Source: Candidatus Jordarchaeales archaeon (lineage in GTDB: Archaea > Asgardarchaeota > Jordiarchaeia > Jordiarchaeales > Freyrarchaeaceae). From it: a stretch of DNA of 32,000 nt. Made by a program: the position numbers and the translations under genes. Positions 3,657 to 17,672 of this stretch are shown here, one piece after another. Position 1 is the stretch's first letter. Every line of letters starts with the position of its first letter. The DNA lies in NCBI GenBank assembly GCA_038889235.1, contig JAWAHN010000001.1, positions 434,499-466,498 of the forward strand. Reading direction: 5' to 3'. The notes beneath the pieces are model-generated. The model searched no databases. It worked only from the letters and a program-made list of their open reading frames with translations, and had not been told where the DNA came from.

Positions 3657-4538
3657 TTATATACCTTTTGTTTCTTTGGAAGCCTTTTCCTCCTTCATGT
3701 TTGCAAGCTCCCTTAACAATTTTTCTTCTTCTTCTTTTGGGAGCTCGTAAGAGTGTTCTATGGTTGGATAGGCCCCGCTTCTCACTTCGCTAATGTACTT
3801 CTCTACAGCGTCCATTATGAACCTTTTAATGTTGCAGTACTGCTTCACGAACTTCGGCCTAAAGCCCTCGAAGAAGCCCAGTAGGTCGTGTGTCACCAGA
3901 ACTTGACCGTCACAGTGCACTCCAGCCCCTATACCTATCGTTGGGACGGAAACTGATTCCGTTATGATCTTGGCCACCTTCCAAGGGATGCATTCGAGGA
4001 CTATCGAAAATACGCCTGCTTTCTCTAGAATCTTAGCGTCTTCTATGAGTTTCTTTGCGGCCTCAGCTGTCCTACCCTGAACTTTGTATCCACCAAACTT
4101 GTGGATGGACTGTGGGGTTAAACCTATGTGCCCCATGACGGGGATACCGTTGTCCACAAGGAGCTTTACTATTGAAGCCATTTCTCTGCCTCCCTCAAGT
4201 TTAACGGCTTCAACGCCCCCCTCCTGCATGAGGCGGCCTGCGTTCTTGATAGCCAGTTCAGGTGTAGCATACGACATGAAAGGCATGTCTCCGACTACCA
4301 GCGCCCGCTTAACTCCTCTACTAACAGCTGCGCAATGTCTTACCATGTCGTCCATGGTTACTGGTATCGTGTTGGGGTAGCCTAGGATTACGTTGCCCAG
4401 AGAGTCGCCTACGAGTATCACGTCCACTCCAGCTTCGTCGAGAATAAGGGCGGTTGGGTAGTCGTAAGCGGTGAGCATTGTTATCTTCCTGCCTTCCTCT
4501 TTCATTAAGCGTAAGTCTATCACCGTTAACTTACCCAA
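3657..4538 (-). CDS. panB: 3-methyl-2-oxobutanoate hydroxymethyltransferase (ketopantoate hydroxymethyltransferase)
   Basis: Motifs KITMLTAYD, LVGDSLG, GDMPF, VKLEGG, GHIGLTPQ and IGIGAG. Probable TTG start at 4538 after GGAGGG. Confidence 0.97.
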   Translation of the reverse strand: MGKLTVIDLRLMKEEGRKITMLTAYDYPTALILDEAGVDVILVGDSLGNVILGYPNTIPVTMDDMVRHCAAVSRGVKRALVVGDMPFMSYATPELAIKNAGRLMQEGGVEAVKLEGGREMASIVKLLVDNGIPVMGHIGLTPQSIHKFGGYKVQGRTAEAAKKLIEDAKILEKAGVFSIVLECIPWKVAKIITESVSVPTIGIGAGVHCDGQVLVTHDLLGFFEGFRPKFVKQYCNIKRFIMDAVEKYISEVRSGAYPTIEHSYELPKEEEEKLLRELANMKEEKASKETKGI

Positions 4539-4694
4539 GACGATTGCCCTCCACGGCACACTCTGAGTGGAGAAAGTCGTTTATACGTTTTAAGCGTTTT
4601 CAAAATGGGTGCAGGGTCAATAGTTTCATTCTTTCCCTAAGTCAGGGGCTAGATTTCTGATGTTAAGTTTTAATCCGAGCGTTCTTTGACAATC

Positions 4695-4702
4695 TTTAAA
4701 TA
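4695..4702 (+). promoter_or_regulatory. Candidate TATA box of the hdrA operon
   Basis: TTTAAATA in the AT-rich intergenic region about 50 nt upstream of the hdrA start. Confidence 0.4.
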
Positions 4703-4752
4703 AAAATAGATCTTTGTTAAGACGGACAGCATGGAGGAGGTGTTAAAGAGGT

Positions 4753-6693
4753 TTGGGAAGTGAAATTACTCCTCGCATAGGTGTCTTCATATGCCACTGA
4801 GGCAAGAACATAGCTGGCGTCATCGATGTCGAAGCGCTCAAAGACTATGTTTCAACGCTGAAGGATGTCGTCTGGGTTGAGACCTACATTTCTCTCTGCA
4901 CACACGCCGGGGCGGAGCTGATAAAGGCGAGGGTGGAGGAGCACGAGCTGAACAGGGTGGTTGTCGCGGCGTGCACCCCTAAAACCCACGAAGAAGTCTT
5001 TAGGAGAGTGTTGCTCGAGGCTGGTCTGAGCCCCAGCATGTTGGAGTTCGTGAATATCAGGGAACACGATTCCTTCGTCCATATGACGGATCCCAAAAGC
5101 GCCTTAGAAATGGCTAAGGACGTTATAAGGGGAGCGGTGGCTAAGGCGAGACTTCTTGAAGAGATACCACGCATGCTACTTCCCGTGACCCCCAGTGTCC
5201 TCGTGATAGGGGGAGGCATAAGTGGCATACGGGCTGCGCTCGAAGTGGCTGAAAGCGGGTTCAAAGTGTACTTGGTTGAAAAAAGTCCGACGATCGGCGG
5301 GAGAATGGCGATGCTTGACAGAACTTTTCCAACGAATGACTGTGCCATCTGAATACTTGGCCCGTTAATGCTTGAGACTGCCAGGAGGGAGGAAGTGGAA
5401 ATTCTCACTTATAGCGAGGTCGAGTCGGTTGAAGGAAACGTGGGGGACTTCAAGGTTAAGGTTAGGAAGAAACCGAGGTATGTTAACGAGGAGCTCTGCA
5501 ATAGCTGTGGGGCATGCGCTGAGGTCTGCCCTGTTTTCATACCGAGTAGCTTCGATCTAGGGCTTGGAGTGAAGAAGGCGATACACCAGCCGTTTCCACA
5601 GGCTGTCCCACAAACGTACCTCATAGACATTGAGAGGTGTATAAGGTGCGGGCTGTGCGAGAAGGTGTGTGACAAGAAGGCTATAGACTTCAACCAAAAG
5701 GAGCAGGTAATTGAGCTGGAGGTCGGAGCTATAATAGTGGCTTGTGGCGGTGATTCCTATACGCCGAGGTTCGGTGAGTATGGCTACGGCAAGTATGCCA
5801 ACGTGATAACTCAGTTCCACTTGGAGAGAATGCTTGCCCCGAACGGACCAACGGGTGGAGAGGTTGTGAGGCCATCTGACGGAAAGAAACCTAGAAGAGT
5901 TGTCATGATCCAGTGCGTTGGCTTTAGAGATATGAAGAGGAACGAGTATTGTTCCAACGTGTGCTGCATGGTGGCTATCAAAAACGCGATGCTATTAAAG
6001 CAGCACTTGCAGGATGTCGAGGTCTTTGTCTGCTATACTGACGTGAGGTCGTACGGTAAGGGCTACGAGGAGTTCTATGTTCAGGCGAGGGAACATGGTG
6101 TTATATTCCTAAGGGGGCGCGTTGGAGAGGTCGTCGAGGACGCCGATACAGGTGAGCTCTTAGTAGTGGTCGAGGACACGCTTTCAGGCAGAGTAATTGA
6201 GCTAAGAGCTGACCTAGTCGTCCTCTCAACAGGAGTTGTGCCATCAAGTGACTTAAGCAGGATAGCCGAGATTCTGAAGCTCGAGCGGAGCCCAGATGGA
6301 TTCATAAAGGAGTTACACTCACGCTTAGCTCCAACAGACACTAAAATGCGCGGCATATATGTCTGCGGCGATGCGCAGGGGCCAAAGGCCATAGATGCGT
6401 GTGTAGCTCAGGCGAAAGCTGCCGCGGCATCTGTCATCAGCCTTCTTTCTATCGGAAAGGTGGAGCTCGAGCTTGCTACAGCAGTCGTCAAGGATGACAA
6501 GTGTAGTGGCTGTGGGCTTTGCGAGCTCGTCTGCCCCTACAACGCTATAAGCGTCGGCGACGTCGCAACGGTAAACGAGCTCCTGTGTAGGGGGTGCGGT
6601 AAGTGCGCTGCAACATGTCCCTCTAAGGCGATTTATAGGAGGGGTTACAGGGAGGAGCAGCTTGAAGCATACATAGATGAGATCGCGAAATAG
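4753..6693 (+). CDS. hdrA: Heterodisulfide reductase subunit A, selenoprotein with two in-frame UGA (Sec16 at 4798-4800, Sec200 at 5350-5352), 646 aa
   Basis: One frame runs from TTG 4753 (SD GGAGGTG) through GVFICH-TGA-GKNIAG, VVVAACTP, VLVIGGGISG, FPTNDCAI-TGA-ILGP and the ferredoxin motifs to TAG 6693. It joins track ORFs 4933..5352 and 5368..6693. Both TGA codons sit where HdrA has Cys. Confidence 0.93.
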
Positions 6694-6704
6694 GAGGATG
6701 ATGG

Positions 6705-7187
6705 ATGACTGAACCCAAAATCGGGGCCTTCCTCTGCTGGAAAGGGTTTGACAGCCCCCAGAAATGAGGTTATGGTGCTGCAGACATGGCGGGGACGATG
6801 AGGCTGCAGTATCCCGCTGCAATTAGGCCGATAAGAGTGCCGTGCGCCGGCAGAGTTTCAGCGGACTTGATAGCTAGGTTACTGTGGAAAGGTGCGGATG
6901 GCGTAATGGTTGTAGGGTGACGAGTCGGTGAGTGTGCGTTTGAAAACGGGAACATTATGGCAGCAAGGCACGTCGAGATAGTTCAAGACCTGCTGGAACT
7001 TATGGGTCTTGGCGCGGGGAGGGTGACGATGGTTTACTGCTCCTCGGCTGAGGGCAAATACTTCGCTGAGGCGGTTAGAGAAGTAAGCGAAAAAGTGAAG
7101 GCCTTGGGTCCTAACCCTTTAAAGGCGAAAAAAGCGGATGAGCTTGGAGCCAAAAGCGCACGAGCTCCAAGTGACCCCCTCAGCTAA
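6705..7187 (+). CDS. mvhD: MvhD/VhuD [2Fe-2S] subunit, selenoprotein with two UGA (6765-6767, 6918-6920) and a predicted 21-nt intron; join(6705..6742,6764..7187), 153 aa
   Basis: ATG 6705 follows GGAGG. The spliced product reads MTEPKIGAFLCWK-U-GYGAADMAGTMRLQYP...RVPCAGRV...GADGVMVVG-U-RVGECAFENGN...LGPNPL. The track shows only the last 76 aa. Confidence 0.92.
6743..6763 (+). other. Predicted BHB intron (21 nt) in mvhD mRNA
   Basis: Central helix CUGG(6737-40)/CCAG(6758-61), bulges AAA(6741-43) and AAA(6762-64), inner stem GGGUU/AGCCC with a UGAC loop, outer pairing CCUC/GAGG. Cutting after the second base of each bulge restores CxxU spacing. Confidence 0.8.
7136..7177 (+). promoter_or_regulatory. 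Eukaryote-like SECIS candidate inside the mvhD 3' coding region
   Basis: A-UGAG (7138-7142), 8-bp stem CUUGGAGC/GCUCCAAG (7143-50/7164-71), apical loop containing AAAA (7152-55), then UGAC (7172-75). This gives the tandem G.A/A.G core. Confidence 0.75.
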
Positions 7188-7272
7188 CGCGTGGGGGCTT
7201 TCATCTCCCACCGATATCTCAATAAAAGTTTCAATGGTTGGTTGTAGTGTGTAACAAAAATGTTCTCTCGGG

Positions 7273-8295
7273 TTGATGGGTGTGAGCGACAAAGGAGTCG
7301 AGTGGTTAGCATGTAAGAGTGATGTATACGCCTTGCTGCGTAGTTTGGTTAGGTGTTTACTGGAGGAAGGGGAAGTCTCAGGTGTCGCTTCAGGAGAGGT
7401 TAAAGAAGAAAAGATTTCACTGCGCATAGTTAGGGATGTTAAGGAAGTCGACGAGGCGCCTTTAGACCGTGTTTTGCTTTACGGTTACCGTGGACTGGAA
7501 TCGCCTGTCAGAGCCGTTAGAGATAGGAAGGGGGAAAGACTAGCTATTCTTGTGAAGCCGTGCGAAGCGAGAGCCTTGATTGAGCTCTCAAAAAGGAAGC
7601 AAGTTAGCCTAAGTTCGACGTTCGTTGCAGGTTTTGATTGTCCCGGAGTGAGCGTGAACAACACCGAGGGTAGCTTACTGGCTTTGAGCGACGCACCAGA
7701 ATACGAGGTTCTGAGGGAGGCATGTAAAAGGTGTGAGGTGCACACACCCCCATATAGCGACGTGGTGATAAGCCTGCTTGCATCAGCCGACATACCCCTC
7801 GTGAGGGCTGGGACCGAAAGGGGAGTGAAGATGCTCAGGATCCTTGAAAGAAAGGGGATTCGCTTCGGTAATCCGAGCCGAGAGCTTCTTTCGAAAAGGG
7901 AGGAAAAGTTAAAGATGCTGAACGAGAACGGTAAAAGGAGACTGGAGGAAGAGGAGAAGGAGCTGCTTTCAAAACCTGCCGCTGAGAGATTCTCTTGCTT
8001 CATGAGCTGGCTTGACTCATGCATTAAGTGTGGTGCGTGCATAAGGGCTTGTCCAATTTGTTACTGTAAGGATTGCATAGTTACGGCTAGACGAAAAGAT
8101 TACGCTCCTTCATTCTTCCTAGTTACGAAAATGCTCCACATGGCGGATTCCTGCGTTTGCTGCGGTAAGTGCGATGAAGTCTGCCCGAAAAGCATACCGT
8201 TATCGTATATATTCTACCACCTGGGAAGGAGGTTTGCCTCCAGATACAACTACCTAGCAGGAGTAGACTTCTCGAACCCTCCAAGAATAATCTGA
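7273..8295 (+). CDS. FdhB/FrhB-family protein with a C-terminal 2x[4Fe-4S] domain
   Basis: Motifs LAILVKPCEARALIEL, CKRC, CIKCGACIRACPICYC and HMADSCVCCGKCDEVCP. Lies directly downstream of hdrA-mvhD. Confidence 0.8.
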   Translation: MMGVSDKGVEWLACKSDVYALLRSLVRCLLEEGEVSGVASGEVKEEKISLRIVRDVKEVDEAPLDRVLLYGYRGLESPVRAVRDRKGERLAILVKPCEARALIELSKRKQVSLSSTFVAGFDCPGVSVNNTEGSLLALSDAPEYEVLREACKRCEVHTPPYSDVVISLLASADIPLVRAGTERGVKMLRILERKGIRFGNPSRELLSKREEKLKMLNENGKRRLEEEEKELLSKPAAERFSCFMSWLDSCIKCGACIRACPICYCKDCIVTARRKDYAPSFFLVTKMLHMADSCVCCGKCDEVCPKSIPLSYIFYHLGRRFASRYNYLAGVDFSNPPRII

Positions 8296-8462
8296 AAACA
8301 CTCTCTAAAATCCAAAAGACTAAACTTTAAAGGGGTTTAGGCGTTTCTAAGTGTGTAAATTGGGAAGGAAGGAGGTTTCACGGGGTTCTTTGCTTTTTTG
8401 GGACTTTTCGGGGAGCTAGGAGGGTTCGTTTAAAAATTGTTTAAAAAATGGATGAGATAGGA

Positions 8463-8744
8463 TTAATCGTATTTTTCGTCCCCTTCAACAATGTAAACTG
8501 CGAATACTCCGTCGTCGAACTCTTCGAACTTATCGATCCGCACTCTTATTCCGAGGTCTTCAAGTATGATGCGTAAGTCATCCAGGTAGTCGTAAACACC
8601 ACATGAGCGGCACCAGAAGGATCCGCTGAAAAATACGCCAAAATCCTTTTCACCTACTTGGACCAGTTCGGCAACCACTTCTGGAGCACGGTACTTGTTG
8701 TATTCCTGAATTGCAGCATGGAGTTTTTCCTTAAAGAGGTTCAA
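8463..8744 (-). CDS. Small hypothetical protein with a CxxC motif
   Basis: ORF containing FSGSFWCRSCGVYDYLDD. Probable TTG start at 8744 after GGAGG (track start 8762). Confidence 0.65.
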   Translation of the reverse strand: MNLFKEKLHAAIQEYNKYRAPEVVAELVQVGEKDFGVFFSGSFWCRSCGVYDYLDDLRIILEDLGIRVRIDKFEEFDDGVFAVYIVEGDEKYD

Positions 8745-15765: not shown

Positions 15766-17672
15766 CTGTATGGTTCTCCTCCCAGCGGCGGTCCGGGCTC
15801 AACTGGTTCAGGCGGGAACATCTCTTCCGGAGGGGCACGTCTCATCTTGTAGATTGCGAACGCGAGAAGAAGTGCAGCTGTCGCCATGGGAACCACTAGT
15901 ATTACGAGCATCATTGTAAAGTAGAATGATGAGGCTTCTTGACTTAAGAGGTAGAGTAGCAGAAAGACCGTTGGACCCACGCCCTGTATCTTTACCTCAG
16001 CTATCGTCTCGTTGTTACTGTTAACGAACTTTATTGAGCCAGAGAAGAATGGAGCCATGTATGATGACGGGATGTAAATCGTGGCGGTAACAAACTTATG
16101 CGTGTTGTTAAGATCAAATGGTCCCCCCGGTGACAGAGTTATTAGGCTTGAAATACCGCCTTCAACTTCGACCTTCACGTTGCTTAGGCTATTGTCTCGA
16201 GCCAAACCGCCAACTATAGTGAAGTTTACTGTTACGAGTAACTGGGAGCCGAAACTAGTCAATCTAATCCTGGGAGGGGACACTGCCACTGGAACTTTTC
16301 CGCTGCAAAGCAGTTCGTAAGCTGCTGACACATTGACTAAACCACAACCCTGCGCATACGTATCCTCATCCAAGTCGACCGCAGTAGCCATGAGAGCCGC
16401 CTTCACCGTATGAGGAGTTAAATTTGGATTGTAGCTTAAAAGTAGGGCGACTGCCCCTGAAACGTGGGGGGTCGCCTGGCTGGTGCCACTCATAGCCACA
16501 TAACCCTGGGTATTGTTGTAGCTGAGAGAGATTATGTTCACTCCTGGAGCTACAAGGGTCACGCCTGTCCTATGGTCACGTGTTGGTCCACGGCTCGAGA
16601 AGGAGGGTATATAATAGGAGGGTATATAATTAGAGGATGTGACCGCACCCACACATATTGCGAATGCTGCTTCAGCCGGAGCATTTATCGTACCACTGTC
16701 AGGACCATCATTACCAGCAGCAGCGACCACAACGACTCCTCTTAAAGTAGCATTGTTAACCGCCAGACAAACAGGATCGTTAGGATCATTTATTAAGGCG
16801 CCAGCAGAAATAGAAATAACTTTAGCTCCATTATCCACAGCGTCTTGAATTCCTTCGATCAAGTAATTAAGGTCTCCTTTACCGTCTTTGTTTAACACTT
16901 TTATGTTTAGTAGTAGGGCGCCGGGCGCGACGCCGACATACCTTCCTTCACAGTATCCCGCTATTATGCCGGCTACGTGAGTCCCATGACCGTTAAAGTC
17001 AGCGGGGTCATTTTCGTTCTTGACAAAGCTACGGTTATATATTATCTTACTGGAGGGTAGTGCTTCATGGGTGTTTATTCCTGTGTCGAGGACCGCGACT
17101 TTGACTCCTGTCCCGTTTATGCCTAGCTCGTGTAAGCGTCTTGCGCCTATTTGGTCTATTCCTGCGGAGTAGGTTGTAGTTGCCTGCAGTACGCTGTGTG
17201 CTGTGCTGTGAATTTTGATTTCACGGTTATATGTCACTGATTTCACAAAGTCTAAGGATGCCATGTTTGCCGCCATCCCTATGGGAGCCTTAACCAGGAC
17301 GCCGCTTATTATAGTGTATGTTCTGAGCACCGTGACGGCTTCAAGCGACTTGAAGAGTTCAGCTCCCTCCATAGAGGTGACTCCTTGAAACGTTACGATC
17401 ATTTCGACTTCACGGTTCGGGTCTCCTCCGTTCATCAACGATGCTAATTCCGGATCGATTTTTGACACCTGGTTATTTGTTGGCTGGACGCCCGGTTGGA
17501 GTATCACTACGGCTTGAGCTGGTTGGATGCTTGAAGGCTGAGTTAACATGAGTGATGCAAAGAGGGTCAACAGTAGTATGATGAAAAACAACACCGAATT
17601 TTTTCTTCTAGCAGTCAATCTTGCAACCCCTTTCCACTTTTGGTTTCTCCTCTTTGATATGAGGAGGACCAT
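15747..17672 (-). CDS. Membrane-anchored subtilisin-like S8 serine protease (signal/TM, I9-like propeptide, catalytic domain, C-terminal TM, Pro-rich tail)
   Basis: Catalytic motifs VAVLDTG, GHGTHVAG, AAGNDG and SGTSQATP, with hydrophobic segments at both ends. Confidence 0.92.
   Translation of the reverse strand: MVLLISKRRNQKWKGVARLTARRKNSVLFFIILLLTLFASLMLTQPSSIQPAQAVVILQPGVQPTNNQVSKIDPELASLMNGGDPNREVEMIVTFQGVTSMEGAELFKSLEAVTVLRTYTIISGVLVKAPIGMAANMASLDFVKSVTYNREIKIHSTAHSVLQATTTYSAGIDQIGARRLHELGINGTGVKVAVLDTGINTHEALPSSKIIYNRSFVKNENDPADFNGHGTHVAGIIAGYCEGRYVGVAPGALLLNIKVLNKDGKGDLNYLIEGIQDAVDNGAKVISISAGALINDPNDPVCLAVNNATLRGVVVVAAAGNDGPDSGTINAPAEAAFAICVGAVTSSNYIPSYYIPSFSSRGPTRDHRTGVTLVAPGVNIISLSYNNTQGYVAMSGTSQATPHVSGAVALLLSYNPNLTPHTVKAALMATAVDLDEDTYAQGCGLVNVSAAYELLCSGKVPVAVSPPRIRLTSFGSQLLVTVNFTIVGGLARDNSLSNVKVEVEGGISSLITLSPGGPFDLNNTHKFVTATIYIPSSYMAPFFSGSIKFVNSNNETIAEVKIQGVGPTVFLLLYLLSQEASSFYFTMMLVILVVPMATAALLLAFAIYKMRRAPPEEMFPPEPVEPGPPLGGEPYRWPYDF
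16601..16630. repeat. Perfect 15-bp tandem duplication inside the S8 gene
   Basis: aggagggtatataat occurs twice and gives NYIPSYYIPSF in the protein. Confidence 0.9.

Follow-up and report, generated by a model that had tools for sequence, protein, structure and literature searches.

The closest described counterpart of the element treated here, a candidate selenocysteine (Sec) insertion sequence (SECIS) at the end of the hdrA-mvhD gene pair in a 32,000-nt stretch of DNA (the window) from a hot-spring Asgard archaeon of the genus Candidatus (Ca.) Jordarchaeum, is the lokiSECIS of the Lokiarchaeota HdrA-VhuD pairs. It comprises AUGA, a 9-bp stem, an A-rich loop and GA, and one such element behind VhuD is shared with HdrA over ~2 kb (PMC4989117). 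A partial overlap of the SECIS with coding sequence was already noted in that work (Mariotti 2016, PMC4989117), and the Lokiarchaeota geometry consists of a 9-bp stem and a fixed 11-nt loop. Huang, Xiao & Zhang (2024) described a type I eSECIS-like element for Asgard hdrA/frhD (PMC11227280), defined by AUGA or GUGA immediately 5' of the stem and GA or AA immediately 3' of it, a stem of 7-15 bp in which up to 2 mismatches are allowed and a loop of 8-20 nt whose first nucleotides are mostly A. For the Jordarchaeia, Sun (2021) reported HdrA, Prx and MvhD as selenoproteins, HdrA and MvhD with SECIS. Both the eukaryote-like Asgard SECIS and its sharing between hdrA and vhuD are already published (Mariotti 2016, Sun 2021, Huang 2024), and SBP2 is reported to be absent from Asgard archaea.

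According to our analysis, nucleotides 7138-7197 of the window probably represent the SECIS of the Ca. Jordarchaeum hdrA-mvhD mRNA, of the lokiSECIS/Asgard type I eSECIS-like kind (coordinates without a contig prefix are positions in the window; the prefixes C1, C2 and C3 denote other contig positions of the same genome, G000). The mvhD element shows every structural feature of the Asgard type I eSECIS-like element, and its 13-nt loop falls outside the fixed 11-nt Lokiarchaeota geometry. In common with lokiSECIS are the order AUGA, 9-bp stem and GA(C), the A-rich start of the loop, the position at the 3' end of vhuD/mvhD, the lack of SBP2 and the apparent sharing of one element by closely adjoining hdrA and vhuD genes whose several UGAs span ~2 kb. 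The differences concern the loop, which has 13 and not 11 nt and ends in GA and not AG, and the location of the core, of the main stem (helix II) and of half of an accessory hairpin (P3), which lie wholly inside the open reading frame (ORF). Unlike most other lineages, the mvhD element furthermore has a closing helix (P1) at chance level only.

With eukaryotic SECIS of form 1 (RF00031) the element shares the AUGA/GA quartet, the unpaired adenosines of the loop and the presumed long-range action from a site 3' of the UGA, whereas a shorter helix II, an unsupported helix I, the lack of SBP2 and of any Rfam match, and a hairpin inserted directly after the GA set it apart. Like the vhuD SECIS of Methanococcales and Methanopyrus it follows vhuD, with two UGAs 50 codons apart and AUGA facing GAC/AAC around the main stem, but neither a descriptor scan nor reading of the sequence revealed the GAA_A bulge with G-C clamps of that methanogen type, to which experimental support for archaeal SECIS is confined (for the type see Mariotti 2016, Huang 2024). 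Bacterial SECIS likewise lie inside a reading frame and are melted by the ribosome, but they are found 11-37 nt past the UGA and not 220-2340 nt, and the kink-turn core is a further difference. What is peculiar to this locus, namely the full translation of the hairpin, the stop codon in the P3 loop, the missing closing helix and the occurrence of shared and separate SECIS in one genome, deserves a note and not a headline.

Conservation of the kink-turn hairpin

The two strands of helix II (GCUUGGAGC on the 5' side, GCUCCAAGU on the 3' side) enclose an apical loop of 13 nt, CAAAAGCGCACGA (7151-7163), which begins with CAAAA. AUGA and GA would form the tandem sheared G-A pairs of a kink-turn below the 9-bp helix II and the A-rich loop. 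Six-frame searches of 60 relatives gave mvhD homologues with two in-frame TGA codons in many genomes of the phylum, and all of these homologues carry the module directly past GPNP(L). No row of an alignment of 22 sequences (A1) deviates from the UGA of the core, which is preceded by A in 21 rows and by G in the remaining one (L013); AUGA as a whole is invariant in a second alignment of 8 sequences (A5). The 3' side of the core reads GA or AA in nearly all of the 39 related elements that were compared, with UA in a single row (L017), and the C that follows is invariant in A1.

Helix II itself covaries. When the 39 elements were superimposed by their AUGA/GA anchors and without any alignment program, 89% of the positions were paired in cis, compared with 51% in trans and 32-45% in shifted registers. 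In an alignment made with the covariance model R2, 94.5% of the cells were paired versus 60.5% in shuffles, none of 500 shuffles reached the observed score and double-sided changes were found in 13 of 13 modelled pairs (helix II 9/9, P3 4/4); this alignment was fitted to the model and is therefore biased towards the structure, a bias of which the anchored count is free. Within the genus, compensatory changes in helix II convert A-U to G-C and C-G to U-A. Judged from these comparisons of sequence, the mvhD hairpin appears to be a genuine, conserved Sec insertion signal of the eukaryote-like Asgard kind.

The searches for similar elements were in line with this result. A strict descriptor, which demanded AUGA, at least 9 contiguous pairs, AAA early in the loop and then GA or AA, matched three times in the 2.14-Mb genome, each time directly 3' of a selenoprotein gene (mvhD, a second mvhD and a vhuU-like Sec gene), and yielded no match in the reversed genome and none in five shuffled genomes. 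The model R2 was built from 8 elements, three orthologues of the genus and five elements of the second mvhD (mvhD2), with the sequence of the window's own element left out. On the hdrA-mvhD operon it scored the element with 55.1 bits and everything else with at most 5.5 bits; genome-wide it matched only the mvhD and mvhD2 elements, and in distant relatives it also recovered the corresponding elements. Seven mvhD loci served as controls (five without an in-frame UGA, two with one), and no match beside them exceeded 9 bits. The next best R2 match in the window, at 16421-16474 and outside the operon (10.2 bits, E = 0.06), has no helix II and was attributed to chance. Rfam SECIS models gave no match in the window at the gathering score and none in 4400-8500 at E <= 10; published eukaryotic and archaeal SECIS tools likewise fail on Asgard genes.

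These data bear on the suggestion that the two hairpins are merely an ordinary structure for 3'-end stability or termination, which plays no part in UGA recoding. The position at the end of the operon and the unremarkable folding energy would agree with a terminator, as would the end of a metatranscriptome contig 41 nt past P3. A terminator would need no covarying helix flanked by AUGA and GA, however, with an invariant core UGA and a nearly invariant GA/AA; furthermore, the element was found only beside genes with an in-frame UGA and not beside control mvhD loci, and the copy at a second hdrA (hdrA2) lies inside its operon. We regard this explanation as highly improbable.

Several claims of an earlier note on this DNA can be judged at this point. 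The AUGA/GA core and the unpaired apical adenosines were described as they stand in the sequence, the resemblance to the type reported for Lokiarchaeota was seen correctly and the covariation proposed there as a check is present in related genomes. Its stem of 8 bp agrees with the eight Watson-Crick pairs, to which the basal G-U adds a ninth. The label eukaryote-type holds as a resemblance and not as a match to the Rfam eukaryotic SECIS family. Helix I was rightly called weak, since the best flanking helix of the mvhD element has 4 bp, the same as in the trans control and thus at chance level.

Table 1. Position and composition of the hdrA-mvhD genes and of the parts of the element in the window.
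Feature	Position	Strand	Remarks
hdrA, heterodisulfide reductase subunit A	4753..6693	+	TTG start; Pfam FAD/pyridine-nucleotide oxidoreductase and 4Fe-4S domains
mvhD/vhuD, FlpD family	6705..7187	+	Pfam PF02662, 135 bits, residues 19-135 of 160
AUGA, 5' half of the kink-turn core	7138..7141	+	translated within GAT GAG (Asp-Glu)
Helix II and apical loop	7142..7172	+	7142-7150 pairs with 7164-7172, 9 bp including the basal G-U
GA(C), 3' half of the kink-turn core	7173..7175	+	GA at 7173-7174, then C
Accessory hairpin P3	7177..7197	+	CCCUCA (7177-7182) pairs with UGGGGG (7192-7197), loop GCUAACGCG
Full match of covariance model R2 (kink-turn hairpin and P3)	7130..7201	+	55.1 bits, E = 1.7e-16

The accessory hairpin and the overlap with the mvhD reading frame

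In most lineages the conserved structure has three arms: the kink-turn hairpin, P3 after the GA(C), and the closing helix P1, which joins the flanks. P3 reaches at least 5 bp in 34 of the 39 related elements as compared with 33% of shuffles, and its stem covaries (CCCCU/AGGGG, UACCCUG/CAGGGUA, AAUCCUC/GAGGAUU, UGGCCC/GGGCCA and others). The P3 loop is often (G)UAAGCG, which recurs in several lineages, or ends in GCG or GCA. All five SECIS-like elements of the genome, those of mvhD1, mvhD2, hdrA2, selD and vhuU, possess P3. The main texts of the papers on Asgard SECIS consulted here do not describe P3 and mention only the core, the upper stem, the apical loop or a generic lower stem. On comparative grounds P3 is part of the conserved SECIS module.

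P1 has at least 6 bp in 24 of the 39 elements versus 18% in trans, and none of 5000 permutations reached the observed mean. It is present in most relatives outside Jordarchaeum. For the mvhD element and the four orthologues closest to it, P1 amounts to 3-5 bp, no more than expected by chance, and P3 is clear there. Candidate helices I for the mvhD element, namely AAAG/CUUU, GGCGA (7124-7128) with UCUCC (7204-7208) including a mismatch, and GGAUGA (7136-7141) with UCAUCU (7201-7206), were likewise at chance level and not kept in the genus. A kissing interaction of the apical and P3 loops, judged by eye, was dropped; the complementary triplet is lost in relatives.

AUGA, helix II, GA and the 5' half of P3 are all read as mvhD codons. 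The frame contains no earlier stop and ends with the TAA at 7185-7187, which is the UAA within the P3 loop. Residue 135 of the 160 is the last one within the PF02662 match, and the SECIS region encodes what comes after GPNPL (~146-160); the tail after GPNPL reads KAKKADELGAKSARAPSDPLS and the translated C-terminus ends with ...GPNPLKAKKADELGAKSARAPSDPLS. The element overlaps the last 16 codons of mvhD. As AUGA lies 47 nt upstream of the stop codon, the search of Huang (2024), which began 30 nt upstream of the gene end (PMC11227280), would cut the mvhD element in its apical loop. The Jordarchaeia genome of that study (GCA_019056875) matches the order-level relatives and not this genus.

The mvhD stop codon was located in 22 orthologous loci. 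It precedes AUGA by 4-16 nt in eight of them, is the UGA of AUGA in seven and lies inside helix II or its loop in three, whereas the remaining four, exactly the four Jordarchaeum genomes, have it in the P3 loop at +47 from AUGA. In the sister genus the stop is found in the apical loop. The in-frame element of Jordarchaeum is the extreme of a continuum of stop positions, and a wholly translated kink-turn hairpin is, as far as these loci tell, a trait specific to the genus.

The protein tail itself changes where helix II covaries (GAKSARAPS versus GVESKQTPN). In addition, the metatranscriptome contig, which derives from a ~97% identical strain, carries an extra T after 7117 and an extra A after 7127, just upstream of AUGA, so that the frame through the element differs in that strain. 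Comparison of the sequences suggests that the mvhD tail is not conserved as protein. The tail of 16 residues would be a by-product of the RNA element with no function of its own.

The paralogue mvhD2 ends with GPNPLKAKK and a stop codon, followed by 24 nt before its AUGA. Its 3' untranslated region (UAACCCACUUUAAAAGCG..., L072:677-704) resembles the stretch coding for GPNPLKA in mvhD1 (7110-7137), and mvhD1 is without these 24 nt including the stop. The comparison fits the loss of a stop-containing stretch in mvhD1, and the in-frame SECIS may have arisen there by a deletion between short repeats.

A different view would be that the in-frame position matters, i.e. that ribosomes finishing mvhD unfold the element and thereby tune or limit the upstream Sec insertion or recycle a factor, in which case the tail would not be neutral. 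The four genomes of the genus indeed agree exactly in the place of the stop, +47 in the P3 loop, and the sister genus has it in the apical loop; the UAA used in the genus belongs to the (G)UAAGCG motif that is conserved where it is untranslated. On the other hand, the stop positions over the 22 loci form a continuum resembling drift, the ~97% identical strain has two 1-nt insertions that alter the frame, and the mvhD2 gene of this genome ends 24 nt ahead of its SECIS. We therefore consider a function of the in-frame position very unlikely.

Related to this is the broader proposal that the working Asgard SECIS is larger than the published hairpin, comprising the kink-turn hairpin and a P3 with an AAGCG-like loop, usually closed by P1 and in this form reminiscent of a k-junction, and that in Jordarchaeum it was drawn into the mvhD frame with the UAA of the P3 loop as stop, so that terminating ribosomes dismantle a signal needed by four UGAs. 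We put this forward as an unlikely but conceivable extension of the SECIS assignment.

One element for the UGAs of hdrA and mvhD

The hdrA gene starts with a TTG behind a GGAGG box, with GGAGGAGGTG upstream. When TGA is translated as U, hdrA contains two in-frame UGAs at 4798-4800 (CH-U-G) and 5350-5352 (DCAI-U), and mvhD two at 6765-6767 (U21) and 6918-6920 (U72), of which U21 and U72 align with Cys of a Cys-type homologue; hdrA and mvhD have two in-frame UGAs each, at conserved Cys positions. All four lie upstream of the element, at distances to AUGA of 2340 and 1788 nt for hdrA and 373 and 220 nt for mvhD. With the hdrA stop codon at 6691-6693 and the ATG of mvhD at 6705, the two genes are separated by 11 nt.

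By analogy to eukaryotes and methanogens, the folded element, situated at the 3' end of an mRNA that carries both cistrons, would bring the archaeal/eukaryotic-type elongation factor EFSec with Sec-tRNA(Sec) to ribosomes at the UGAs, and EFSec might be recruited directly or through a kink-turn-binding protein. Its targets would be both UGAs of mvhD, 220 and 373 nt upstream, and, most likely, both UGAs of hdrA, 1.8 and 2.3 kb upstream. As no stop precedes the element in the genus, the ribosomes that finish mvhD should unwind the element from the kink-turn through helix II to the middle of P3 before they stop at the UAA of the P3 loop. The first hdrA UGA is codon 16, and consequently the 3' element has to exist before hdrA is translated past that codon, which would imply that this mRNA is translated without tight coupling to its transcription. 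The same puzzle of coupling holds for the published Lokiarchaeota hdrA-vhuD pairs. The binding partner, the action on the hdrA UGAs and the neutrality of the tail are what we infer within this mechanism.

That the mvhD element also serves the hdrA UGAs appears likely. RNA data are available from the metatranscriptome contig mentioned above, which is 2418 nt long, colinear with 4803-7238 (hdrA through the element) and free of indels inside 7130-7238. It lacks exactly 21 nt at 6741-6761, just before the first mvhD UGA, and hence derives from processed RNA from which an mvhD intron was removed; the additional GFDSPQK in the unspliced MvhD translation is due to this retained stretch. In three order-level relatives (L014, L015 and L016; G010, G006 and G009) hdrA and mvhD are fused in one frame of ~590-600 codons with a single SECIS, and the UGA of its AUGA is the stop codon.

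Alternatively, the element could serve only the two UGAs of mvhD, while those of hdrA would depend on another signal or on a separate transcript. The organism can evidently equip an hdrA separately, as hdrA2 of the same genome has its own conserved SECIS, and there is no experimental precedent for action over 2.3 kb and beyond a cistron boundary. Nevertheless, the region 4400-8400, searched on both strands, contains no second SECIS according to the covariance model, a loose descriptor and a descriptor of the methanogen type (GAA_A), and no unusual hairpin follows any of the UGAs: the stretches of 63 nt that begin at the four UGAs are no more stable than shuffled sequence (z between -1.35 and +0.41). 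Together with the 11-nt gap, the order-level fusions with a single element, the one RNA contig that spans both genes and the element, and the published surveys, which conclude sharing, this renders an mvhD-only element improbable and leaves service of all four UGAs as the preferred reading.

In this respect the remaining claims of the earlier note fared well. The 11-nt gap is as it had stated, and the element lies upstream of the stop in the tail past GPNPL, in all four genomes of the genus. Its failure to find another candidate by eye was borne out by the model, the descriptors and the examination of the hairpins after the UGAs, and nothing in the operon scores better than the element. For its proposal of one element for four UGAs up to ~2.3 kb away, the distances and the lack of a rival element stand, while the service to hdrA is a deduction from them.

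Several observations weigh against the assignment as a SECIS or against its sharing. The folding energy is unexceptional in comparison with shuffles (z = -1.6, and -1.1 for a wider stretch). The element is missed altogether by a second covariance model, R1, for which 8 elements from two distant families were used; this model was judged too sequence-specific (AT-rich, 11-nt loop) and used as evidence neither way. Neither Rfam RF01852, at its cut-off, nor ARAGORN revealed a tRNA-Sec in this assembly or in the four relatives closest to it (G001-G004), a weak objection since only 14 of the intron-rich tRNAs of the genome were recovered. No Asgard SECIS has been shown to work experimentally, and a SECIS from Lokiarchaeota failed to function in Methanococcus maripaludis (PMC11881835). 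A contig that spans hdrA and mvhD is no proof of a single transcript. Finally, the paralogous pair of hdrA2 (3 UGAs) and mvhD2 (2 UGAs) has two SECIS, at C1:748700-748742 and 749302-749336 (L072); hdrA2 having its own, sharing is not the rule in this genome, and for hdrA1 it rests on the fact that no alternative was found. The hdrA2 SECIS lies 15 nt past the hdrA2 stop, reads AUGA...AA, has a ministem within its loop, is closed by a clean helix of 8 bp and is kept with compensatory changes in three relatives of the genus.

Selenocysteine machinery and meaning of the locus

The genome encodes EFSec (306 bits; at C1:350598), SepSecS (498 bits), a PSTK-like gene (E = 8e-57) and a Sec-containing selD, and SECIS-like elements follow selD, the vhuU-like Sec gene, hdrA2 and mvhD2 as well. 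Of the 581 positions of the bacterial family model, the SelB homologue of the genome covers 2-292, the EF-Tu-like half, and no more. Only two genes of the L7Ae family are present, presumably L7Ae at C1:612950 and L30e at C1:1077075, with no SBP2-like paralogue among them. ARAGORN yielded 7 tRNAs without and 14 with introns allowed, many of the introns at non-canonical sites; its "tRNA-SeC" at C2:40794 is better read as an intron-bearing tRNA-Leu(UAA).

Two side observations concern the other Sec genes. In selD (HG-U-ACK) a frame-shifting insert of ~31 nt follows ...SDVY at C1 ~553441-553471, after which the protein resumes with AKGATEIVGF...; the insert is a candidate mRNA intron of the tRNA type (bulge-helix-bulge). 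The vhuU-like gene is a small ORF (MVELD...RAYDCULGCAAH..., one Sec) after a [NiFe]-hydrogenase large-subunit gene, followed by a SECIS with a CCCCC/GGGGG P3 at C3:428374-428410 on the - strand (L087).

The locus leaves the accepted picture unchanged. It suggests that a distal SECIS of the 3' type can tolerate being translated through, and that such elements, together with their P3, would escape published search windows (30 nt before the stop) and minimal-hairpin models or be cut short by them. If the working module were indeed larger and in frame, Sec decoding of hdrA and mvhD would be coupled to the ribosome traffic at the 3' end, and a larger module could account for the failure of minimal Lokiarchaeota hairpins in heterologous tests. 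With ~70 nt and RNA support, the locus is a compact and well-defined object for experiments, in a genome that holds both SECIS arrangements, and it belongs to the Asgard SECIS that have been proposed as the link between archaeal and eukaryotic Sec decoding.

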